From Escherichia coli (lineage in GTDB: Bacteria; Pseudomonadota; Gammaproteobacteria; Enterobacterales; Enterobacteriaceae): 64,000 nucleotides of DNA. Below are positions 5,995-16,168 of this stretch, in pieces. The notes beneath the pieces were generated by a model. That model saw only the letters and a program-made list of their open reading frames with translations, had not been told where the DNA came from and did no database searches. Within the stretch, counting starts at the first letter, position 1, and each line of letters starts with the position of its first letter. A program made the translations under genes and the position numbers. The stretch is taken from the NCBI RefSeq assembly GCF_030013205.1, contig NZ_CP122648.1; one strand, given 5' to 3'.

Positions 5995-6267
5995 ATGTCT
6001 CATACCATCCGTGATAAACAGAAACTGAAAGCGCGTGCCAGTAAGATTCAGGGCCAGGTCGTGGCGCTCAAGAAAATGCTCGACGAGCCGCACGAATGCG
6101 CTGCAGTTTTACAACAGATTGCTGCTATCCGTGGCGCGGTAAACGGTCTGATGCGGGAAGTGATTAAAGGTCATCTGACGGAACACATCGTTCACCAGGG
6201 GGATGAGCTAAAACGTGAAGAAGATCTGGATGTCGTTCTGAAGGTGCTGGATTCTTATATCAAATAA
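5995..6267 (+). CDS. rcnR: Ni/Co-responsive transcriptional repressor (CsoR/RcnR family)
   Basis: 90-aa ORF ([29 protein letters not shown]...) divergent from rcnA. Confidence 0.95.
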
Positions 6268-6304
6268 TTTATTAACGCGATTGTAAAACTGCGGTTTTTA
6301 CTCG

Positions 6305-6333
6305 TTTACAACGCGTGCGCTGGACATTACCAT
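6305..6333 (+). promoter_or_regulatory. Candidate sigma70 promoter, possibly the displaced native thiM promoter
   Basis: TTTACA (6305-6310), a 17-bp spacer, then TACCAT (6328-6333), about 30 bp upstream of the left TPP-aptamer copy. Confidence 0.35.
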
Positions 6334-6360
6334 CCTCCTCTGCGATTTATCATCGCAATC

Positions 6361-6437
6361 AAACGACTCGGGGTGCCCTTCTGCGTGAAGGCTGAGAAAT
6401 ACCCGTATCACCTGATCTGGATAATGCCAGCGTAGGG
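6361..6437 (+). repeat. Left copy of the 77-bp direct repeat: TPP riboswitch aptamer fragment (putative attL)
   Basis: Identical over 77 bp to 15251-15327. The sequence AAACGACTCGGGGTGCCCTTCTGCGTGAAGGCTGAGAAATACCCGTATCACCTGATCTGGATAATGCCAGCGTAGGG is the thiM THI-box aptamer. Confidence 0.9.
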
Positions 6438-6520
6438 GGCCAAAATAGTCTTGAAAATTATGTGGTTGTATCTCTTTTTGACCATAAATCATGCTGTTAA
6501 GGTACAAAAAGGGGTCGTTT

Positions 6521-7828
6521 ATGAGGTCAAGAACTCTCCCATACACATTTCAGCGAAACGGTAATTACTATCTACAAATCCGGCTTTCGGATGGTCGGAT
6601 ATACAAAAAATCACTTTTTACTGACAGTTATCGCGAAGCATCGGCGTTGATGATTGGCCTTACTCCGCACATTCCTTTCGTTAAATCACTCGCTACTCCG
6701 TTGCCGCAATTTAATAAGTTTGTTTCAAACTTGATCGCTTCGTCACGTAACGTAATGATTCCGTTGCCACTCCCTCAGCAATTGAACAATATTTCTAAAG
6801 AAGTTTTGCAGCTTCAACCACCAGCCAAACCGGAAAAGGTGCTAACACTTGCTGATGCGTGGGCTATGTACAAGGAGGAAAGAGGTCGAAATTGGACAAA
6901 ATCGATCTCAATGGCAAATGAGCGTTATATGGAGGTATTGCTTGTTGTCTTGGGAAAAGAAACAGACGTAACGGCAATCACCAAACAAGATATTAAGCGA
7001 GTAATGGAAACTGTCGAAAACTTACCAAAGCGTGTAGTGCAACCGTATAGGTCAATGACTATTCAGCAACTAATCGAATGTGATGATGTGCTGCCAGAGG
7101 ATTTAGTTGGTGCTGAGGCTGTACATAAGCACCTTAAAATCTACAAATCGTTATTCAAAACATTTCTGACTGAAAACAAAGATATTCTATCTAAGTCTCC
7201 GACTGATGGAATAGTAGCGGCACCATCCAAAGCTAGGTTTGGTGCATACAGTGCAGCAGAAATGAAAAAATTTGTAGGATGGGCACTAAAGCAGCCTGAT
7301 GGATGGCAGAAGTGGATCACTTTGTTGTTGGCGTACACAGGAGCCAGAAGAGGTGAGATTGCTAAACTGGAGAAGTCGCAGATCAAATTTGATGAAGATA
7401 GCCAGCGGCACTATCTTCTGATCGCGGAAAGAAGGCTGGGTAAAACTGAGAATGCTACAAGACAGGTAGTGATTCATCCCAAACTGATTGAGTGGGGGTT
7501 TCTGGATTTTGTTAACCGCCAATGGAAAGAGAAAATCTTTTCGGAAGTCTCAGGTCGAAATATGTCAAAGATAGGTAAAGTTCTTTCAGATGTTCGTGAT
7601 CAGCTTGATATTCCTTATCTTGATGATTATGGGCAGCGGCGCTTGGTGCATAGTTTCCGGCATACTATGATTTCTACTTGTTTAGCTGGTTGGGTGAGTA
7701 ATTTGGCGCATCTGCAACAGGTGGTAGGTCATGAGAAAAGCGGTTTAGGGATTACCAGACGCTATTTGCACTCTTTTCCTTTACGTTCAATTTGTTACGT
7801 GATTGATGGTTTGGACTGGTTAAATTGA
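6521..7828 (+). CDS. Tyrosine recombinase / phage-type integrase
   Basis: ATG 6521 with SD AAGGGG (6509-6514). C-terminal catalytic residues are visible: ARRGE (Arg), HSFRH (His-x-x-Arg), GHEK (His), RRYLH (Tyr). The track start at 6491 adds 10 aa. Confidence 0.9.
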   Translation: MRSRTLPYTFQRNGNYYLQIRLSDGRIYKKSLFTDSYREASALMIGLTPHIPFVKSLATPLPQFNKFVSNLIASSRNVMIPLPLPQQLNNISKEVLQLQPPAKPEKVLTLADAWAMYKEERGRNWTKSISMANERYMEVLLVVLGKETDVTAITKQDIKRVMETVENLPKRVVQPYRSMTIQQLIECDDVLPEDLVGAEAVHKHLKIYKSLFKTFLTENKDILSKSPTDGIVAAPSKARFGAYSAAEMKKFVGWALKQPDGWQKWITLLLAYTGARRGEIAKLEKSQIKFDEDSQRHYLLIAERRLGKTENATRQVVIHPKLIEWGFLDFVNRQWKEKIFSEVSGRNMSKIGKVLSDVRDQLDIPYLDDYGQRRLVHSFRHTMISTCLAGWVSNLAHLQQVVGHEKSGLGITRRYLHSFPLRSICYVIDGLDWLN

Positions 7829-7927
7829 TGTGAGCCTCGTGAGAAAGGGAATAAATAGAGAAAATCAAGTTGTTACCTCATTGGCAGGGGATATAATGAC
7901 CATATTGTCATCTTGAGGAACAAAAGT

Positions 7928-9499
7928 ATGGTTGCTCGTTCTAACCTTGTAAATTTAGATGCACTGATTAAGCGTGCTGATTTAGGTTTAAAGATCCAAG
8001 ATAACTCTTCATTTGAAACGCTAAACAGTATTCCTGCAAGAGAATTGAAATCAGGAAGTGGAATTGCTGCGCTTCTGAGAAAACCAGATTTCCAGCGTGA
8101 AACAAATCATTGGGGGCCTGAGCAGGTTGTATCGCTTCTCGAATGCTACATCAATGGTGATTTGATACCTTCCGTTATTCTTTGGCGGTCTTCAACCCAT
8201 CTTTTTGTGATCGATGGTGGTCATCGTTTAAGTGCGTTACGTGCTTGGGTTGAAGATGATTATGGCGACGGTCATATATCCCATCAACTTTTTGGGCATG
8301 ATATTCCTCGTGAACAACGCCGCGCTGCAGATAGAACGAGAAAGCTTGTGAAGGAGAGGGTCGGTAGCTGGGAATATTATCAGAAGTTGCTTGCCGATGA
8401 TGCTTCATTGACCGAGGAACAGCAGAGAAGAATCAGCGTATTAACATCTCGTGGAATCTCAGTCCAATGGGTAGTGGGTGATGTAGATAAGGCAGAAACT
8501 TCATTTTTTAACATCAATATGAAGGGAACTCCTCTTGATGCTATCGAAGAGATGCTTCTAAAAAATCGCAAGAAAAGTATTCCGATAGCAACCCGAGCAA
8601 TTATTCGTGCCGGTAGAGGTCATCGCTATTGGTCGGGGTTTGATCAGAGCATTGCCCAGCAACTTGAAGATAAATCTGCAAAGCTGCATCGTTTGCTGTT
8701 CGAACCTGAAGTTGATCGCCCTATTAAAACTCTTGATCTTCCATTAGGCGGTTCTAGGGGGGTCAGGACAGCGATCCAAGTTTTGAAAGATTTCTTACTG
8801 ATCACTGATTGCAACCAGAATGGTGTTTTGAAAAAAATCGAAGCCTACCCTGATGATGCGTCGGGTGCTGATACGTTAAGAATCCTTTCCAAAGCCACAT
8901 CATTAAGCAATAGAATTACAGGCAATGGCGATGGTAGCTTGGGGCTTCATCCAGCGATTTATTTTTATGGTCCGACTGGAATCCACTCAACGCCAATGTT
9001 TCTAGGAACTGTGCTACTGGTGGCAAAACAACTCTCTAACAATAATGGTCAATTCTTTAAAGACTTCACAACAATCAGATCTAGGCTTGAGAGAATAATG
9101 ATCGAATTTAAGGACTTGATCGCAATGATAGTACAAAAACCAGGTAGTAATGTCCGAGTGGCTCGCTACTGTGATTTTTTAAATGCGGTGATCAAATCAC
9201 TCAAGCAGGGAGAGAATATTGATGAGAGTAAGCTTATCGAGCTGGCCGAATTGGAGGGGAGAATACTCTCTGGAGATTTTAAGAGAACATCAGCAAAAAT
9301 CAGCGATGAACAAAAAAGTAAGGTGTTCATTGACGTGGCTCTGCGCAACGCTTTGAAATGTCCGATTTGCCAAGGTTACCTTGATACTGAAAAGTCAGTT
9401 TCTTATGATCATATCGTACGTGTCCGTGAGGGAGGAGATGGTAATTCTGACAATGTACAGTTGACACACCCTTACTGTAACCAGTCAGTGAAGTGTTAA
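7928..9499 (+). CDS. DUF262/ParB-like (DGQHR-type) N-terminal domain fused to a C-terminal zinc-ribbon HNH nuclease; candidate defence nuclease
   Basis: ATG 7928 with SD GAGGA. Motifs: KPDFQRE, VIDGGHRLSALRAW, FFNINMKGTPL. C-terminal sequence: CPICQGYLDTEKSVSYDHIVRVREGGDGNSDNVQLTHPYCN. The track start at 7913 is a TTG. Confidence 0.8.
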   Translation: MVARSNLVNLDALIKRADLGLKIQDNSSFETLNSIPARELKSGSGIAALLRKPDFQRETNHWGPEQVVSLLECYINGDLIPSVILWRSSTHLFVIDGGHRLSALRAWVEDDYGDGHISHQLFGHDIPREQRRAADRTRKLVKERVGSWEYYQKLLADDASLTEEQQRRISVLTSRGISVQWVVGDVDKAETSFFNINMKGTPLDAIEEMLLKNRKKSIPIATRAIIRAGRGHRYWSGFDQSIAQQLEDKSAKLHRLLFEPEVDRPIKTLDLPLGGSRGVRTAIQVLKDFLLITDCNQNGVLKKIEAYPDDASGADTLRILSKATSLSNRITGNGDGSLGLHPAIYFYGPTGIHSTPMFLGTVLLVAKQLSNNNGQFFKDFTTIRSRLERIMIEFKDLIAMIVQKPGSNVRVARYCDFLNAVIKSLKQGENIDESKLIELAELEGRILSGDFKRTSAKISDEQKSKVFIDVALRNALKCPICQGYLDTEKSVSYDHIVRVREGGDGNSDNVQLTHPYCNQSVKC

Positions 9500-9567
9500 A
9501 ATCACGTTTCACTTTTCGTTGTCATTTGTATCGAACGTTTTTGAGAAAGGGCAGGATTGCGAGCGAG

Positions 9568-9720
9568 TTACCAGCGTAAACAGATAAATACTGTTTTCGT
9601 AAGCCCACTGTCGCCGCTTTCCGCTCTGCAATTTTTGCTTGTCGGGGGGCTAATTGTGGCTTTGCTTGCCATAACATTAAAAGTCAGTAATATACTGAAA
9701 ATTAATACAATACTTTTCAT
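9568..9720 (-). CDS. Possible 50-aa exported peptide (below the ORF-track cutoff)
   Basis: Hand translation of the minus strand gives MKSIVLIFSILLTFNVMASKATISPPTSKNCRAESGDSGLTKTVFICLRW*. The N-terminus is signal-like and the SD is weak (GGGA). Confidence 0.35.
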   Translation of the reverse strand: MKSIVLIFSILLTFNVMASKATISPPTSKNCRAESGDSGLTKTVFICLRW

Positions 9721-9863
9721 ATATCCCATTGAATATTCAGTTCATTGCCAAATAGCAAGCGGAGCACTCTCTCTTTAACGTTGTAGTAACTTAGTTGAAC
9801 AATTTTATAATATAATTTGTCTAAGTTGGTTGATGTATCAAAGCCTTTTTCTGAAGAATGAAT

Positions 9864-9883
9864 TGGCGTGATTACTCACGCCA
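9864..9883 (-). terminator. Hairpin 5 nt after the stop of the 9888-10235 gene
   Basis: TGGCGTGA (9864-9871) pairs with TCACGCCA (9876-9883), loop TTAC. The downstream tract on the minus strand is only moderately U-rich. Confidence 0.4.
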
Positions 9884-9887
9884 GATT

Positions 9888-10235
9888 TTAAATTTCAGAA
9901 CATAGGCTAAGCGTATAGACAGCAGTTTGCCCATCATTGTTAGTCGGTCTCATAACGAAAACAGGCTGACTCCCATTATCAATGTATGTGACTGCAACCC
10001 CTCCATCAGGTGTGGCATACATTTTTGCGATGCTTTTTTGACCTATAAAATCAAGTCTCCAAGTCTTACCACCAAGATGTATTGTCATTTTTTTATCTTG
10101 TATATCAAAAGTTGAATCTACAGAAACTTTCTGACTTCCCGAGTCAATATGACCTTCCTGTATTGCTTTACAGGAAAAGGTTGTGGCGTGGCCCATCACT
10201 GGAATTAACAAAGCGGCAAATACTAGTTTTTTCAT
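9888..10235 (-). CDS. Small exported (periplasmic) protein of unknown function
   Basis: ATG 10235 preceded by GGGAGA. Sec signal peptide MKKLVFAALLIPVMGHA; the mature part looks beta-rich with one Cys near each end. The track ORF has a 19-aa upstream extension. Confidence 0.7.
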   Translation of the reverse strand: MKKLVFAALLIPVMGHATTFSCKAIQEGHIDSGSQKVSVDSTFDIQDKKMTIHLGGKTWRLDFIGQKSIAKMYATPDGGVAVTYIDNGSQPVFVMRPTNNDGQTAVYTLSLCSEI

Positions 10236-10345
10236 TTGTCTCCCTTGATGTGTCAAATGGATGGTGATGCTAATAATACATGATTGATTCAAAATGTCAC
10301 GATTAGTGCGTGGTTAATTGGTGCGTCAAATTGCATCTTTGTGCC

Positions 10346-10810
10346 ATGCGAAAGAATCTGAGATACCTTTTTGGACAACGAGTAAAAGAGTTCCGTATAG
10401 CTATTGGCTTAAGCCAAGAGGCCTTTGCAGATCGGTGTGGTTTTGCTCGTAGTTATATGAGTCGAATTGAGCGTGGTTGCTCTAATGCATCTCTTGATGC
10501 AATTGAGGTTCTGGCTGACGCTTTGCGTATTGAGCCTTGGCAGTTACTAGCTTCTGATTCAAGGAAAACTGATGATCAGGAGGTACTTGTTCCTTATGCT
10601 GCAGATGGGTCGTGTTTTCATCCAGGATTGGCAAGTACTCGCGATGGTTCGTTTAGAGTAGGGGAAAAATCAGCCCAGAAACGTTTCAGTTCGTTCAATG
10701 ACGCTCTCGAATACCTTCGTGGAATGGAAACCGCGAAGTGGCGTAGGCCTAATGCTAGTGGTAATTGGGGAATTGTATCTGCGGTTAAATGGGATCGACT
10801 GAATCAATAA
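10346..10810 (+). CDS. XRE/Cro-family HTH regulator with an uncharacterised C-terminal domain
   Basis: The sequence MRKNLRYLFGQRVKEFRIAIGLSQEAFADRCGFARSYMSRIERG is a classic XRE HTH. About 85 aa of C-terminal sequence are unassigned. Divergent from the 10235 gene. Confidence 0.8.
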   Translation: MRKNLRYLFGQRVKEFRIAIGLSQEAFADRCGFARSYMSRIERGCSNASLDAIEVLADALRIEPWQLLASDSRKTDDQEVLVPYAADGSCFHPGLASTRDGSFRVGEKSAQKRFSSFNDALEYLRGMETAKWRRPNASGNWGIVSAVKWDRLNQ

Positions 10811-10976
10811 GATATCAGTAATTTTCGGGCCACTCCACAAGGCAATAAGTGGCTTAGTGGTGATTATCGAAGGGGAATACAAGCGAGCACCTAGGCACCA
10901 TTGCAAGAACCGCTCAACGCTGAGATCAGCAAGCCCCGATTTCTGCCGACCGTCCCTGTCAAATATCAAGGAGGCA

Positions 10977-11516
10977 TTACGCCTCCTCTTCTTCCTTCTT
11001 AATTCGCTGTACCGTCGAAGGAGCAACATTAAAGATCTCGGCGGTTTTACGCACTGACACGCCATCAGAAAGGGCTTTCTTTATACCTTCTCGATCCACT
11101 GCCTTACCTTTACCACGCTTTCTAGGATTGACGGCTTGCGCTTCTCGTTTACGTTCTAACATCAGTTCACGTTCACACGTTGCCACTGCCGACAACATAG
11201 TAAGCATCATTTTTCCCATCGCGCTTGTAATGTCTGCAATGATCCCTTCTTTGTGAAAGCGAACAATTACACCACGATTATTAAGTTGTTCCACTAAGGC
11301 AAGAATGTCTAAGGTGTTACGCCCTAAACGATCAAGAGAGTGGACGTGTAAGGTGTCGCCTTCTCTCAGATAGGCTAAACACGCTTGTAAGCCTGGGCGG
11401 TTAGTGTCTTTACCAGACAGCTTATCTTCAAAGACTTTGTCGAGAGTTAGTCCTGCAAGCTGGCGATCAGTATTTTGATCTACAGTGCTCACACGCTTAT
11501 AGCCGATATTGCTCAT
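10977..11516 (-). CDS. Serine recombinase (resolvase/invertase family)
   Basis: MSNIGYKRVSTVDQNTDRQ carries the catalytic Ser motif, and there is a C-terminal HTH (VRKTAEIFNVAPSTVQRI). 179 aa from ATG 11516. Confidence 0.9.
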   Translation of the reverse strand: MSNIGYKRVSTVDQNTDRQLAGLTLDKVFEDKLSGKDTNRPGLQACLAYLREGDTLHVHSLDRLGRNTLDILALVEQLNNRGVIVRFHKEGIIADITSAMGKMMLTMLSAVATCERELMLERKREAQAVNPRKRGKGKAVDREGIKKALSDGVSVRKTAEIFNVAPSTVQRIKKEEEEA

Positions 11517-11529
11517 AAAATCCCCTTGA

Positions 11530-11654
11530 TGTATCGATTTGGCACCACTCCAATGCAAATGAGTGTGTTGTATTCATTTGGTCTGTTTCAAGCCTTATGG
11601 ATACGGAATATTACACGATTTAGCTGTATTCATTTGGTATGCCTAATGGATACG
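11530..11654. promoter_or_regulatory. Putative res site (2-3 imperfect inverted-repeat subsites) upstream of the resolvase gene
   Basis: TGTATTCAT (11569-11577) with ATGGATACG (11597-11605), and TGTATTCAT (11625-11633) with ATGGATACG (11646-11654), at different spacings. A weaker third half-site TGTATCGAT lies at 11530-11538. Confidence 0.45.
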
Positions 11655-12165
11655 CAGGGGGATAGATTAAATGGTGTTCTGTTTATACAGGTTTATTTGT
11701 TAGATCAACAAGTTGGCATTTCTAAACAGATGTTTGAACGTTGCCAAATGCCTTGACAACACAAGAAAATGGCTTGCTATGAACGCATTACACGAAATAA
11801 GGCTATAAAAACAAAATAAATTTTAAAATTTGCACAAAAACGAGAAAACTCGTTCGACAAATAATAGATTGGTTTTTAATCGACAATTTCTGACAATTTC
11901 TGATGGTGCTCTGTAAACCGCATTACACAAGGCTTTGCGAAAGTGATGTAAAAGTGAAGAAAGTTAACATTGCACTTTGAAGCCATTTTTCATTGGATTT
12001 TTTAGTAGGGAATTACACAGGGAATAGAGAGCATTATTCTATGATTTACACAGGGAATATAGGGGATTATGGCACACACATAGAAAGGCATTACACAGAG
12101 TGAGTGCTATGTGATGATTGGTAGTAACGGTAGGTCACTGTGAGCTACCCCCCACAGAATTCTGT

Positions 12166-12286
12166 TACCCCTATCAAGTCTAACAGGGGTTTATAAAGAA
12201 TAATAAACCGATGATACCCCTATCAATATTGATACCCCTATTAGCTTTGATATGACTACCCCTATCAAAACTGATACCCGATAAGA
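12166..12286 (+). repeat. Array of five direct repeats (TGA)TACCCCTATCAA followed by an AT-rich stretch (ori-like iterons plus DUE)
   Basis: TACCCCTATCAA at 12166, 12215 and 12257. Variants TACCCCTATTAG at 12233 and TACCCGATAAGA at 12275. An AT-rich run follows at about 12281-12340. Confidence 0.7.
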
Positions 12287-12440
12287 ATAAGTTAATAAGA
12301 ATAATTAAATAATATTCTTTATATCTATATATATGATCTTTTTGCCTTCCGGCGTTAGCTTCACTCTCTGGCAAGCAGCCTTACTCCGCTATCTTTGGGC
12401 TTCGTGGCTGGCCCGTTCCGCTCACACCGAAAGCAAAGCG

Positions 12441-12518
12441 TTACTCTTCTTCGTGTAACTATCGTTGGCGGTAACGCCACACGAAGAAATACTATTGCGC
12501 TGTGCGCAGTAAGAGTAA
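12441..12518. other. GC-richer segment with nested inverted repeats (three-way-junction-like fold; function unknown)
   Basis: TTACTCTT (12441-12448) pairs with AAGAGTAA (12511-12518). CTTCGTGT (12449-12456) pairs with ACACGAAG (12479-12486). TGCGC (12496-12500) pairs with GCGCA (12504-12508). Confidence 0.3.
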
Positions 12519-13364
12519 TCACCTAACCAATCACCTGATTGCTTACGTGTTAACTCTCTCTAACTCTTAATTACCCTCCTACATTTAATAACTCTATTAT
12601 TCTCTGTAGTTGTGTAATTACTCGAAGAGAGAGCGGCTAAAGCTCAATTACACTCTGCTTTCCTCGTGTAATTTCACTAAGCCTCAATACAATTTCACTT
12701 CCTACATTCTGTAGTCGTGTAATAGTTTTCGGTGGGGAAAAGCCAGAGGCGACACCGAAAGAAAATTCTGATCTTATTAATCTTATCTATCTTAGTTAAT
12801 CTTCTTACTTACTTTATCTACTTTATTATTAATAATAGCTTTATAAGCTCTCTGTGTAGCTCTCTGACGCAAGAAACAGCATTCAGGAAGGGAATCACCT
12901 TAGAAAAGTGTTCTTTGCGTCATAATGTGTTTTATGAAGGATTCAGAGGTGTTTCATAACACAAGGTATAGAGGATATTTTAGTTAATTAAAAATAAGGG
13001 GGCTAAATGCTTCTCTAACAGCATTAAGCAGGGTAGAGAATGGAAATGCATTGCCTACGTATATATAAACTCACTACAAGGCTTTACAGAGCGTTTTATA
13101 AAGTAACTAATCTAAGAACTCTCTGTTTTATATCTATCATCATCTTTCCATCATCTAACAAATACAAAATAAGCCCCTTAAATAAGCCTCTGGCGAGCTA
13201 AACAGCCATTACATAAGGGAATGTATTTCTTTTATCAAAACTTCGTTAGAACGCGTTTTAGAGCGTTTTATACAATAAGGAAGAATAGGACCGTCCGCAA
13301 GAGCACGAATTGCTAAGAAAGAATGTAAACGCATGAAAAATATCAGATTTTTTATGAAAATATA

Positions 13365-13393
13365 TTGACAAATGTTTCTTTATATGTAATAAT
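13365..13393 (+). promoter_or_regulatory. Near-consensus sigma70 promoter of the Rep-like module
   Basis: TTGACA (13365-13370), a 17-bp spacer ending in TGT (extended -10 type), then AATAAT (13388-13393). Confidence 0.6.
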
Positions 13394-13444
13394 AGGTATT
13401 AGAGAGACAGAAAAACATTCTTCTCTAAATAATCAAAATCAATG

Positions 13445-13483
13445 CACTTTGAAGCCGTCAGGCTTGCAAGGTGTTTTTCTTTT
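13445..13483 (+). terminator. Intrinsic-terminator-like hairpin in the leader between the promoter and the first ORF (attenuator or short sRNA 3' end)
   Basis: CACTTTGAAGCC (13445-13456) pairs with GGCTTGCAAGGTG (13461-13473) with two mismatches, followed by TTTTTCTTTT. SD AAGGAG and ATG 13504 follow. Confidence 0.5.
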
Positions 13484-13503
13484 AACTGAATAAGGAGTTT
13501 TTT

Positions 13504-13692
13504 ATGAAATGGTTTACACCGGAACACGTCGTAGAGGCATTTAAAAAAGGTGAGCTAACACGACATCAAGTAGTAATGAATCGTAATATGGCAAGGAGTC
13601 GAGGTTATCCAGAGCGTGAAAAATGTTTCGATGCAGCACTAAAAATTATTGATAAATTAAGAAAAAATGAAAAAGGATCTGAAACAGAGTAA
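13504..13692 (+). CDS. Small basic protein of unknown function (62 aa)
   Basis: Strong SD AAGGAG 7 nt upstream of the ATG. First ORF after the promoter and leader. Confidence 0.6.
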   Translation: MKWFTPEHVVEAFKKGELTRHQVVMNRNMARSRGYPEREKCFDAALKIIDKLRKNEKGSETE

Positions 13693-13711
13693 AGAAGAGA
13701 AGGAGAAAACT

Positions 13712-13882
13712 ATGAGCGAAACTACAGAAAAGAAAAGACAACCACGCACTTGCTTTCATATTCCTGATGAAGTATTTCAGGTGTTGTTTAAAGAAGCCAG
13801 AAGTAAACGTATCACTGTTACAGATTACATTCTTGATATGTTGAAAAGAGAGGCTGAAACACTCTCAAATAAAAGCAAGTGA
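13712..13882 (+). CDS. Ribbon-helix-helix (CopG/Arc-like) DNA-binding protein (56 aa)
   Basis: ATG 13712 with SD GAAGGAG. RTCFHIPDEVFQVLFKEARSKRITVTDYILDMLKR fits the RHH strand-helix-helix pattern. The track start at 13667 overlaps the previous ORF. Confidence 0.6.
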   Translation: MSETTEKKRQPRTCFHIPDEVFQVLFKEARSKRITVTDYILDMLKREAETLSNKSK

Positions 13883-13936
13883 TTTTTATCACCATAGTAG
13901 CGCCGTAGAGCGTGATTACATCAAGGAGCTTTTTTA

Positions 13937-14599
13937 ATGATTAAACATACAAAACCTTTCTTAGGAATAGATTATGACTTACTAGCAATCACTTCCCTAG
14001 TGATTAACGGCAAAACAAAAGAAGTAAAACTACATCATAAGATCATTTATTCTTATTTGTTAAGTTTATCTGGCACATATCAAAAGGTAACACCATCTTT
14101 GAAAGGTATTGGTGAGCGGTTAGGAGTAGGTACAGATCAGACGGTACGCCGTCATATCAAAGATCTTGTTTCTTTTGGATGGTTGAAGATTGAGGAAAGG
14201 GCAGGTAGCACAAATGCTTATATTGTCCTTCCTTATGAACAAGAAGCCCAGACACAACAAGAAGCTACCGTTAAAGCTGTTCAGGAACAGCTTCCCCCTA
14301 CGGAAGATAATAAAGAGTTTTCTTTTGATGTTCTTGATGATTGGGATGCGCCTTTACCTTGGGAAATGGAAGAAACGCCATCTGATGAAAAGGTAGCTAA
14401 TGATAATGAGGAGGATGTGTTAGAGAATTTTGCCTCTCTTATCATCCAGGAGAAACACACAAGAACAGGAGGGGCATCATTTATAGAATTTGCAACATCG
14501 TTAGCCTGTAAGCACAGGATAAAGCTACCAAATGGTATTGAGGCATATTTTGCTAAGAAACATCCCAAAGTATATGAAGACTTTGATATTCCATTTTAA
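13937..14599 (+). CDS. Winged-HTH protein with an acidic C-terminal region; putative replication initiator / DNA-binding protein
   Basis: SD AAGGAG precedes the ATG. wHTH-like segment LKGIGERLGVGTDQTVRRHIKDLVSFGWLKIEERAGSTNAYIV, then an acidic tail (DDWDAPLPWEMEETPSDEKVANDNEEDV). It lies next to the iteron region. The CDS call is solid; the function is inferred. Confidence 0.6.
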   Translation: MIKHTKPFLGIDYDLLAITSLVINGKTKEVKLHHKIIYSYLLSLSGTYQKVTPSLKGIGERLGVGTDQTVRRHIKDLVSFGWLKIEERAGSTNAYIVLPYEQEAQTQQEATVKAVQEQLPPTEDNKEFSFDVLDDWDAPLPWEMEETPSDEKVANDNEEDVLENFASLIIQEKHTRTGGASFIEFATSLACKHRIKLPNGIEAYFAKKHPKVYEDFDIPF

Positions 14600-14794
14600 T
14601 AAGGAGGGTTATGATTCAATATTTAGTAAAAAATAAAGTAGAATTCATCTATTCCACTCTCTAAAAATCTATCTGTGTAATATAAAATGAAAACATTATG
14701 GTATTAGCTATGTATTGGTTATTGTTCTTTCTGGCCTTAGAAACATATGCAAGTAAGTCTGGAAAACGAAAGTAATATATTGATGATTTGTTTG

Positions 14795-15052
14795 TTATAA
14801 CTTCGTGGTGTCAAGTCCAGCAGTTTTGAGTCGCTCGGTAAGATTTCTCATTTTGCTGAACTCTGTACCAAAGCTGGCTTTAAGTCCTACACCTTCGCAA
14901 AACTCTTTTGCCGTGACGTTTTTCAGATGGTCAACATATTTGGTCATCTGGAGGTGCATTTCCATCGTTTGGCTATTTCGTGATGCGCTGCTAATGGCTT
15001 GCTTAATGTTCTCGTAGATCTGGGTTCTGTCATTGTTTATCCCACCTATCAA
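14795..15052 (-). CDS. Small hypothetical protein (85 aa from a TTG start; may start internally)
   Basis: Open frame at the right end of the island. The only full-length start is TTG; the first in-frame ATG gives 56 aa (MEMHLQMTKYVDHLKNVTAKEFCEGVGL...). Confidence 0.45.
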   Translation of the reverse strand: MIGGINNDRTQIYENIKQAISSASRNSQTMEMHLQMTKYVDHLKNVTAKEFCEGVGLKASFGTEFSKMRNLTERLKTAGLDTTKL

Positions 15053-15146
15053 ATTTAGAAAAATAATATTAATTAGCTAATTAATATAATCAATGGTTTT
15101 CACCATCTGAATGATAGCCGTTAATTGTTTCTTTTTCATTCCTTCT

Positions 15147-15168
15147 ATGGGGTACAAAATGGGGTACA
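15147..15168 (+). repeat. Tandem ATGGGGTACA repeat near the right island end (candidate integrase arm-type sites)
   Basis: ATGGGGTACA at 15147-15156 and 15159-15168. A related GGTACAAAA occurs at 6501-6509 near the left end. Confidence 0.4.
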
Positions 15169-15250
15169 CAGAGAAGAAGCAATTAATGGAGGCGAGCTTG
15201 CATCTGCAAGCCACTTCCCCTAAGCTGGCACAAAATATAGAGATTCAACC

Positions 15251-15379
15251 AAACGACTCGGGGTGCCCTTCTGCGTGAAGGCTGAGAAATACCCGTATCA
15301 CCTGATCTGGATAATGCCAGCGTAGGGAAGTCACGGACCACCAGGTCATTGCTTCTTCACGTTATGGCAGGAGCAAACT
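15251..15379 (+). promoter_or_regulatory. thiM TPP (THI-box) riboswitch: aptamer plus expression platform (right repeat copy, putative attR)
   Basis: The aptamer sequence matches the well-studied E. coli thiM riboswitch. It continues into AAGTCACGGACCACCAGGTCATTGCTTCTTCACGTTATGGCAGGAGCAAACT and the thiM ATG at 15380. Confidence 0.9.
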
Positions 15380-16168
15380 ATGCAAGTCGACCTGCTGAGT
15401 TCCGCGCAATCTGCGCACGCGTTACACCTTTTTCACCAACATTCCCCTCTTGTGCATTGCATGACCAATGATGTGGTGCAAACTTTTACTGCCAATACCT
15501 TACTGGCGCTCGGTGCATCGCCAGCGATGGTTATCGAAACCGAAGAAGCCAGTCAGTTTGCGGCTATCGCCAGTGCGTTGCTGATTAACGTTGGCACACT
15601 GACGCAGCCACGCGCACAGGCGATGCGTGCCGCCGTTGAACAGGCAAAACGCTCTCAAACACCCTGGACGCTTGATCCAGTAGCGGTTGGTGCACTCGAC
15701 TATCGCCGCCGTTTTTGTCTGGAACTTCTGTCTCATAAGCCAACCGCCATACGTGGTAATGCTTCGGAAATCATGGCATTAGCTGGCATTGCTAATGGCG
15801 GACGGGGAGTGGATACCACTGACGCCGCAGCTAATGCGATACCCGCTGCACAAACACTGGCACGGGAAACTGGCGCAATCGTCGTGGTCACAGGCGAGGT
15901 GGATTATGTTACCGATGGCCATTGCACCGTTGGCATTCACGGTGGCGATCCGCTAATGACCAAAGTGGTAGGAACTGGCTGTGCATTATCGGCGGTTGTC
16001 GCTGCCTGTTGTGCGCTACCAGGCGATATGCTGGAAAATGTCGCATCTGCCTGTCACTGGATGAAACAAGCCGGAGAACGCGCAGTCGCCAGTAGCGAGG
16101 GGCCAGGCAGTTTTGTTCCACATTTCCTTGATGCGCTCTGGCAATTGACGCAGGAGGTGCAAGCGTGA
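15380..16168 (+). CDS. thiM: Hydroxyethylthiazole kinase
   Basis: 262-aa ORF ([33 protein letters not shown]...) directly after the TPP riboswitch. Confidence 0.95.

Follow-up and report, generated by a model that had tools for sequence, protein, structure and literature searches.

What is the function of a stretch of nearly 2 kb in an Escherichia coli genome that holds no credible gene and is filled with short repeats? The stretch in question lies at positions 11517-13503 (1987 bp; below, the non-coding region, NCR) of a 64,000-nucleotide segment of contig NZ_CP122648.1; this whole segment is referred to as the window. Positions 11000-14200 were read and all open reading frames (ORFs) were listed. 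A previous sequence-only reading of the window had pointed to the heptamer ATTACAC and to longer dispersed repeats in the NCR, had considered their density unusual for E. coli chromosomal DNA, and had proposed a complex regulatory, origin or packaging region, or non-coding RNAs. The density is indeed unusual, because the region is the DNA of a mobile element. According to the analysis described here, the NCR is probably (rough probability 0.75) the control region of an integrative satellite-like island and represents a mosaic of cis-acting modules, namely a res site, a replication origin, a folded block, and a promoter with its leader.

The most diagnostic repeats of the NCR had been overlooked in the sequence-only reading. 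These are four TACCCCTATCAA iterons (12163-12268), followed by an AT-rich stretch. The features of the proposed replication module are as follows:

12163-12279, plus strand: iteron array, four copies of TGATACCCCTATCAA at 12163, 12212, 12230 and 12254; proposed Rep-binding sites
12280-12335, no strand assigned: AT-rich stretch with ATAAGA-type tandem repeats, in the same arrangement in the related elements L004 and L038; proposed DNA-unwinding element
13504-14599, plus strand: Rep operon, with genes for a 62-aa protein (13504-13692), a 56-aa protein (13712-13882) and Rep (13937-14599)

The sequence TACCCCTA is present in four copies, while 0.05 copies are expected from shuffles of the NCR. Segment 12118-12335 is the sole hypervariable part of the otherwise ~90% identical NCR, and in relatives the same slot is occupied by other repeat families (GGTAGGTCACTGTGAGCTAGGGG, CTAGGAAATGAGTTCC, ACAGAATTCTGTTA and GTAACGATATGTTAC), after which an AT-rich stretch is found again. 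One relative, L002 (NZ_CP027442.1, L002 8450-8960), contains a composite origin with three adjoining iteron families, GTAACGATATGTTAC, CTAGGAAATGAGTTCC and GGTAGGTCACTGTGAGCTAGGGG. Such composite origins suggest cassette shuffling, possibly under the pressure of origin-targeting phage nucleases.

The Rep protein (220 aa) shows similarity with PHROG replication initiators of the O-like / DnaD-like type (4e-12 to 2e-8) and with the Pfam family HTH_36. A comparison of 76 distinct elements showed that each cluster of Rep N-terminal sequences has its own iteron 10-mer. The 10-mer TACCCCTATC was found with all eight window-type Reps and with all three Enterobacter homologues, and the other clusters carry other 10-mers. 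The Rep proteins of L007 and L002 have 54 of 60 C-terminal residues in common with the window Rep, and their N-termini are only ~25-30% identical to it (18-19 identical residues over 59-71 aligned positions); the iterons of these elements are different. The Rep of L038 has 70 of 100 N-terminal residues in common with the window Rep and an unrelated C-terminus, and its iterons are the same. These natural domain swaps indicate that the iteron type follows the N-terminal winged-helix domain of Rep. The locus combines the features by which iteron origins are recognized, namely at least three direct repeats of ~12-22 bp, an adjacent AT-rich region and a covarying initiator domain. The four iterons with the AT-rich stretch are, hence, a well-supported candidate for the replication origin, in which the AT-rich stretch would serve as the DNA-unwinding element. 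The earlier suggestion of an origin was borne out by the iterons and not by ATTACAC, on which it had been based.

As for the heptamer itself, ATTACAC occurs in the NCR exactly at 11610, 11787, 11922, 12012, 12090 and 12647 on the plus strand, and its complement GTGTAAT at 12612, 12666 and 12717. All positions given before were correct, and the copy at 11610 had been missed. Near-copies are TTTACAC at 12045, as reported, and ATTACAT at 13208, which had been placed at 13209. The longer dispersed repeats are also present, with some coordinates shifted by one base: TTACACAGGGAATA at 12013 and 12046, TCTGTAGTYGTGTAAT at 12603 and 12708, TGCACTTTGAAGCC at 11971 and 13443, and AGAGCGTTTTATA at 13088 and 13259. 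The NCR makes up 3% of the window and contains 9 of its 14 copies of ATTACAC/GTGTAAT. In dinucleotide-preserving shuffles of the NCR, 0.34 copies are expected, the maximum was three, and none of the 2000 shuffles reached nine; after correction for the choice of the best 7-mer, some 7-mer was present in at least nine copies in 8 of 500 shuffles. In six type-A elements, the group to which the window belongs, only one of 70 heptamer columns was variable, versus 218 of 1532 other NCR columns (Fisher p = 5.5e-4). Thus, the enrichment persists when local composition is preserved and the heptamers are retained in homologous islands, the two respects in which the sequence-only reading had considered its claim open to refutation. 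The ATTACAC repeats are real, conserved signals; their description as protein-binding-type repeats is plausible but unproven.

The heptamers are also oriented. In the window, the eight sites on the left side of the origin all have plus orientation, and on its right side minus orientation prevails (four of five sites; hypergeometric p ~0.007, our own calculation). In type-A elements ATTACAC is the commonest 7-mer (8-11 copies), while in elements of the type-B lineage the commonest 7-mers are ATTGCAC and TGTGCAA, and ATTGCAC is found there at homologous and additional positions. Neither ATTACAC nor ATTGCAC is enriched in elements of other genera. The ATTACAC-rich NCRs (5-11 copies) are associated with the Rep C-terminal type "NGIEAYF" in 31 of 31 elements. 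The type of the gene for the 62-aa protein fails to predict the enrichment, since three elements, which are recombinant, are discordant. We would tentatively name the type-A C-terminal module of Rep, or a factor that accompanies it, as the reader of the heptamers. Several other candidates were considered and rejected. The 62-aa protein was a candidate reader, and its basic region does differ between types A and B, yet the association does not hold in the three recombinant elements. The 56-aa protein has an identical sequence in both types and, therefore, cannot set the A/G specificity of the heptamer. A helper-phage promoter or another phage motif is not indicated, since neither ATTACAC nor ATTGCAC is enriched in 105 kb of the phage muut, which is described below. 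Finally, TTACAC was considered as the -35 hexamer of sigma-70 promoters; the spacing fits, but the -10 hexamers are poor.

Two simpler explanations of the gene-free, repeat-rich state of the NCR have to be weighed. It is very improbable that the NCR consists of decayed coding sequence or of unannotated small genes, with repeats that arose by compositional chance. Small ORFs of 31-93 aa are indeed present on both strands, but the longest of them (93 aa and 75 aa) are not conserved in relatives, and others are lost as well, e.g., the ORF at 13209-13334 is interrupted by a stop in L005 and L004. In close relatives, many 1-nt indels occur within the best-conserved part of the NCR, which speaks against coding. 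Compositional chance is contradicted by the heptamer enrichment, which holds against local shuffles, and gene-free stretches of 1.5-2.9 kb are a family-wide trait seen in seven genera. RefSeq (PGAP) annotates nothing under the NCR match in any of the E. coli genomes listed, so the absence of a credible gene, as claimed earlier, stands. The other explanation is that the heptamers have no reader at all and remain from the duplication of hairpin modules or from local duplications within the Escherichia lineage, being kept only because divergence is recent. ATTACAC is enriched only in Escherichia type-A elements, several of its copies sit within longer repeats (D1, D5 and D10), and the relatives used in the constraint test are only ~10% diverged. 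Nevertheless, we regard this explanation as unlikely, considering that the motif columns vary ten times less than the remaining NCR, that strand polarity flips at the origin, that type-B elements carry ATTGCAC at homologous and additional positions, and that the enrichment co-segregates with a protein module.

The island that contains the NCR occupies positions 6359-15345 (8.9 kb) between rcnR and thiM. It is bracketed by two copies of the thiamine pyrophosphate (TPP) riboswitch (6359-6454 and 15249-15345; 61.9 and 71.2 bits). Both are full aptamer copies, one upstream of the integrase gene and the other upstream of thiM, so that the insertion in the thiM riboswitch duplicates it. The order of genes is as follows: tyrosine integrase, GmrSD-type nuclease, a hypothetical gene, XRE regulator, serine recombinase, the NCR, two small genes, the 220-aa HTH_36 protein (Rep), and an HTH_73 gene. 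The cargo gene at 7913-9499 encodes a GmrSD / DUF262-HNH type IV restriction-like nuclease.

The NCR was matched in 686 of 5426 complete E. coli genomes, mostly with 80-95% identity. In most of these 686 genomes, it is located within an element of ~11 kb at the thrW tRNA gene, in which Rep is followed by a gpE-type major capsid protein, a tape-measure-like protein, a Dit-like protein and a tyrosine integrase. A full-length relative of this kind (~11 kb) is L003, at the thrW locus of NZ_CP143395.1 (L003 6353-17820). The common laboratory strain ATCC 8739 also carries the island, with 98.8% identity. A search of plasmid DNA with the whole NCR gave only two partial matches, which covered 19-34% of the query and of which one lies in a 4.9-Mb record of the plasmid collection, and a search of phage DNA with segment 12330-13360 gave no match. 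The window island belongs to the ~11-kb family, which is spread across Enterobacterales, but is truncated; given its GmrSD-type cargo, it may persist as a defence carrier.

Homologues of the capsid protein (37-64% identity) were found in Citrobacter, Enterobacter, Klebsiella, Cronobacter, Dryocola, Sodalis and Serratia, and the elements (L003, L038-L046) occur in at least seven genera of Enterobacterales. The layout was constant in all genomic contexts fetched: a small recombinase gene on the minus strand, 1.5-2.9 kb without genes, small ORFs and Rep; beyond Rep there are genes for capsid, tape measure, usually Dit, and integrase. Three of the elements (L038 4166-4726, L040 4021-4599 and L042 3138-3689) have a small tyrosine recombinase of 183-204 aa in place of the serine recombinase of Escherichia.

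The structural genes link the elements to the phage muut (NC_052657.1), a 146-kb Justusliebigvirus of the Stephanstirmvirinae. The Dit-like protein of the elements shares 59.5% identity with muut gp018 and the tape measure 32-53% with gp017; for the capsid protein, there is a muut product with 22% identity. Since the capsid, tape-measure and Dit genes of full-length members are related to those of Stephanstirmvirinae phages, the family can be called satellite-like. In addition, muut gp094 (NC_052657.1 81258-82256; L032 4001-4999) begins with a domain nearly the same as that of Rep: its first 123 residues are 99% identical to the L003 Rep, its first ~140 residues are 88% identical to the window Rep, and the DNA sequences are 94.7% identical. 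This domain is followed by a second HTH_36 and then by MUG113/T5orf172 (MUG113 1.8e-4, just above the Pfam cut-off; T5orf172 0.03). The small gene directly upstream of gp094 encodes a product with 46% identity to the island 56-aa protein.

Pfam and PHROG analyses of 10 L003 proteins gave matches only to HTH_36/Rep, the gpE-type capsid, the tape-measure protein and the Dit-like protein. Among these 10 proteins, there were no terminase, portal, sheath or tube proteins, no P4-like hallmarks (psu/delta/sid, alpha primase), and no hallmarks of phage-inducible chromosomal islands (PICI; alpA with pri-rep) or of cfPICI (HK97-type capsid, portal, protease, TerS). No described satellite of Stephanstirmvirinae-type phages and no capsid-bearing island at thrW were found in the literature. 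Probably, the family is an undescribed group of satellites. Mimicry of a phage pac or cos site was examined with nhmmer and blastn-short searches of the NCR against the 105 kb of muut, and only chance-level matches were obtained; the earlier proposal of a packaging region, thus, received no support from this candidate helper phage.

The remaining modules of the NCR were delimited in an alignment of the window with five ~90% identical relatives and with the 75% identical type-B lineage. Together with the bordering recombinase gene, they are as follows:

10977-11516, minus strand: serine recombinase (resolvase) gene, bordering the NCR; Pfam Resolvase 3.5e-34 and HTH_7, "recombinase family protein" in RefSeq
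11569-11654, no strand assigned: res-like site, imperfect palindromes 11569-11605 and 11625-11654, half-site TGTATYCATWWGG
11610-12096, plus strand: heptamers of the left arm, ATTACAC five times (11610, 11787, 11922, 12012, 12090), TTTACAC at 12045, TTGCAC at 11829 and 11970
11704-11750, no strand assigned: 46-bp element, 82-90% identical to Enterobacter, Cronobacter and metagenome elements whose flanks are unalignable
12301-12750, no strand assigned: structured block of ~450 nt, GC-richer and conserved across genera
Landmarks of the block: invariant CCGCTCACA at 12418, hairpin 12447-12488, invariant GCGCTGTGCGC at 12497, GGCTAAAGC at 12635, AAGCCAGAGG at 12740
Hairpins of the block: HP-S and HP-L within 12495-12644, and AATTACAC/GTGTAATT at 12646-12673
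12760-13130, no strand assigned: type-A spacer with CTTA-rich tandem repeats (12771-12823) and a hairpin with 14-nt arms (12865-12922)
13088-13271, plus strand: GCGTTTTA repeats at 13091 and, in tandem, at 13253/13263 around the palindrome AACGCGTT, upstream of the promoter
13365-13393, plus strand: sigma-70 promoter, TTGACA, 17 bp, TG-n-AATAAT (TGTAATAAT), 11 of 12 matches, extended -10
13447-13483, plus strand: leader terminator/attenuator, stem CTTTGAAGCC / GGCTTGCAAGG and T-run, ~20 nt before the Shine-Dalgarno sequence of the first gene

On the recombinase side, the res-like block was seen only in relatives with the serine recombinase; L002 and L003 lack it. Its position and symmetry suggest a res-like site. 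As in the res sites of Tn3-family and plasmid resolvases, imperfect palindromic subsites lie within ~150 bp upstream of the resolvase gene; unlike in Tn3-family res, only two subsites are recognized here, and other genera carry the small tyrosine recombinase instead. The 46-bp element may be a leftward promoter or a control site of the recombinase. The left arm forms a conserved alignment module (11660-12117) in which every TT[A/G]CAC site points rightward. Segment 11843-12151 is 77% identical to type-B elements, and the left-arm sites are kept in type-A relatives.

At the right end, the spacer is confined to Escherichia type-A elements and is unalignable to type B and to other genera, while segment 13131-13492 is 78% identical to type B. 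The GCGTTTTA repeats are a candidate operator. The promoter is invariant in six relatives and conserved in the Enterobacter element L038, in which the leader hairpin is preserved as well by two compensatory changes (GAAGCC/GGCTT to GAAACC/GGTTT and CTTTG/CAAGG to CTTCG/CGAGG). A consensus terminator scan missed this hairpin because its stem is bulged. The predicted promoter and leader terminator upstream of the Rep operon are well supported by sequence and bear out the regulatory function suggested previously. Pairing in trans between the left-arm TGCACTTTGAAGCC and the 5' arm of the leader terminator was also considered; it comprises 15 of 16 positions in the window, has 3-5 mismatches in other elements, is absent in other genera, and was set aside. 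The 62-aa basic protein encoded by the first gene is predicted to form a bundle of three helices (pLDDT 86). It matched nothing in Pfam or PHROG and no PDB fold, and homologues were found only in these Escherichia islands. The 56-aa protein has no Pfam match and, by eye, resembles ribbon-helix-helix proteins.

The structured block is retained in every genus. An nhmmer profile built from nine elements matched 108 loci in several genera, where the block always adjoins the AT-rich stretch, with a constant side relative to the origin and a constant strand relative to Rep. The 23 block representatives are 37-92% identical; short invariant motifs (CCGCTCACA, GCGCTGTGCGC, GGCTAARGC and AGTGCCAGAGG) alternate with hairpins that vary in sequence and length by lineage. 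Motifs CCGCTCACA (12418-12426) and GCGCTGTGCGC (12497-12507) are mutually complementary at 8 of 9 positions. Their pairing could close a domain around the variable hairpins; both are invariant, so covariation is uninformative here. A XerCD/dif-like site at GCGCTGTGCGC was rejected, since visual inspection showed no XerD arm. The right-hand heptamers at 12453, 12612, 12647, 12666 and 12717 are all located inside the block: 12453 within the stem of the hairpin preceding GCGCTGTGCGC, 12612 in the 3' arm of the long hairpin, and 12647 and 12666 as the two arms of one hairpin, for which the L038 and L046 homologues have CTTACAC / GTGCAAG. The left-hand heptamers are not within recognizable helices.

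The fold of the window block has z-scores of -3.1 (plus strand) and -4.1 (minus strand) versus shuffles. Since the variable hairpins were misplaced in global MAFFT/RNAalifold alignments, two covariance models were built and the sequences were realigned to them. For 12495-12644 (45 pairs, 38 distinct sequences), 82.8% of cells were paired versus 76.2% in shuffled data, and 23 pairs were changed on both sides versus 12.1 (0 of 500 shuffles in each case); the covariation score was 0.199 versus 0.098 for shuffled data and 0.025-0.048 for slid partners. For 12415-12511, the score was 0.116 versus 0.061 for shuffled data and at most 0.043 for slid partners, and the number of doubly changed pairs was not significant (9 versus 7.0). 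These results give good support, although not proof, for conservation of the hairpins of the block.

It may be that the block is a structured non-coding RNA, most likely transcribed leftward toward the origin, although we give this somewhat less than an even chance. Such an RNA would be a replication pre-primer or regulator like ColE1 RNAII, or a trans-acting satellite RNA like PLE SviR, and the right-hand GTGTAAT/ATTACAC copies would then be only helix arms. Besides the covariation of the hairpins, the minus strand folds better (mean z -2.6 versus -1.15 for the a2-a3 part in 23 sequences, with a minimum free energy lower by 17-35 kcal/mol). There are 65 G-U cells versus 29 A-C cells on the minus strand, and in L038 and L046 the TTACAC/GTGCAA arm pairs yield G-U when read on the minus strand and A-C when read on the plus one. 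The interleaving of conserved single-stranded motifs with variable-length hairpin inserts agrees with an RNA, and an abundant small RNA is produced from an ORF-free intergenic region of PLE (bioRxiv 10.1101/2022.04.08.487710). However, the G-U count is biased by a model built on the minus strand, 29 A-C cells are many for an RNA, neither a promoter nor an intrinsic terminator was found for the block, and no Rfam family matches it. A search of Rfam 15 over 6000-15600 found only the two TPP riboswitch copies at E <= 1 and, in five relatives, only tRNAs. Of the non-coding RNAs proposed earlier, what stands is a structured element backed by covariation, which is a candidate RNA only. The block may instead act as DNA, with hairpins that extrude beside the AT-rich region as priming or helicase-loading signals (cf. 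the RSF1010 oriV ssi and primosome assembly sites, pas), or as a pac signal for the helper terminase. This is consistent with the position of the block at the AT-rich side of the origin in every element, with good folding of both strands, with tolerance of both G-T and A-C mismatches, and with the occurrence of CCGCTCACA and GCGCTGTGCGC in lineages with differing hairpins, as would be expected for a site of a shared host or helper enzyme. We consider it a less probable alternative, since 450 nt far exceeds the known lengths of ssi/pas signals, no related sequence was found in the 105 kb of muut, which argues against pac mimicry, and no primase or terminase gene was found among the scanned element proteins.

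The closest known system is the non-coding region of the Vibrio cholerae PLE, with which the NCR shares a common logic and no common sequence. In PLE, an ORF-free region holds the origin with RepA iterons, and the modularity of Rep and ori was shown experimentally; the Odn protein of phage ICP1, which contains a T5orf172 GIY-YIG-type domain, mimics PLE RepA in its DNA-binding specificity and cleaves the PLE origin at the iterons (PMC8263062). Similarly, the large ORF-free region described here contains a putative origin, and the N-terminal domain of Rep covaries with the iterons while the other module is exchanged independently. The gp094 of the virulent phage muut, with the DNA-binding domain of a satellite Rep and a possible T5orf172-type domain, resembles Odn in architecture and, by analogy, may be a nuclease. 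Unlike in PLE, Rep is O-like / HTH_36, the iterons are direct repeats of 12-15 bp rather than semi-palindromes of ~30 bp, and the family encodes its own capsid, tape-measure and Dit homologues. PLE also has no described counterpart of the ~450-nt covarying block or of the oriented heptamers. For a dependence of this family on a helper phage, the support is indirect, namely the similarity of Dit and the tape measure to muut proteins and the lack of terminase, portal, sheath and tube genes among the 10 proteins scanned.

Parts of the arrangement resemble other replication regions. The lambda origin, which is located inside the O gene, comprises four iterons for the O protein, an AT-rich region and an adjacent palindrome. 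The NCR likewise combines an O-like initiator, four direct repeats, an adjoining AT-rich stretch and then inverted repeats; unlike in lambda, the putative origin is 1.7 kb upstream of rep, and the iteron sequences are unrelated. In the satellite P4, ori and crr contain the octamer TGTTCACC many times in two separated clusters bound by the alpha protein. Short repeats in separated clusters within a satellite replication region are also seen here; the P4 octamer, however, is the only site of its initiator, while in the NCR iterons exist besides the heptamer, and the distribution of the heptamer is not tied to the DNA-binding domain of Rep. The oriV of RSF1010 contains iterons, an AT-rich region and the ssiA/ssiB hairpins (ssi of ~40-100 nt). 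The ColE1 RNAII is a long folded pre-primer RNA, and plasmids with RNAII lack Rep and iterons. In both cases, as proposed for the NCR, hairpin-forming DNA or a folded RNA adjoins the site of origin opening.

Taken as the control region of a satellite-like island, the NCR would work as follows. The N-terminal winged-helix domain of Rep would bind the four TACCCCTATCAA iterons, the duplex would open at the AT-rich stretch, and the C-terminal domain of Rep would recruit the replisome. The ~450-nt hairpin block would act in cis or as a transcript in the priming or control of replication. The strong promoter and the leader terminator would drive the 62aa-56aa-Rep operon, and the res-like site beside the serine recombinase gene would serve multimer resolution. 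The heptamers, rightward to the left of the origin and mostly leftward to the right of it, would be a lineage-specific recognition signal for a factor that co-segregates with the type-A Rep C-terminal module. The repeats and their conservation, the covariation of Rep with the iterons, the covariation of the hairpins and the promoter match are observed; binding, melting, transcription and the heptamer reader are inferred.

Several points weigh against this interpretation. The evidence throughout is sequence comparison, and Rep was assigned from remote similarity to PHROG and Pfam families. A distance of 1.7 kb separates the iterons from the rep gene, and no consensus DnaA box (TTWTNCACA) was found in 11517-13503, with five elsewhere in the window; DnaA boxes are common at iteron origins and not universal. 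A function could be assigned to only about half of the NCR, the left arm and 12760-13350 being left over. On neither strand did the block show a convincing promoter or terminator, the alignments used for covariation were fitted to the structures tested, and the sequences are related. The link between the heptamer and the Rep C-terminus could be plain lineage linkage. Finally, the window island lacks capsid and tail genes and may be a defective derivative.

A wider interpretation that joins all parts is tentative, and we hold it less likely to be true in full than not. It states that the elements are undescribed satellites of large virulent Stephanstirmvirinae (phi92 / phAPEC8 / muut type), that the ~450-nt block by the origin is a new RNA, that a heptamer code (ATTACAC or ATTGCAC) is read by an exchangeable C-terminal module of Rep, and that muut has an Odn-like nuclease copying the iteron-binding domain of Rep. 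Together, these would amount to an arms race in E. coli that parallels the one between PLE and ICP1.

Satellites of virulent phages and an arms race targeted at their origins are known in detail only for Vibrio PLE and ICP1. The region described here, which about one in eight complete E. coli genomes contains, suggests a similar system in this species and its relatives, in which natural domain swaps tie the Rep domains to their DNA sites and a candidate phage counter-nuclease exists. The folded element beside the putative replication origin would represent a new RNA family, if it is true that this element is an RNA. As for genome annotation, ~2 kb per element, at present empty, could be given the labels ori, res, promoter and structured element.

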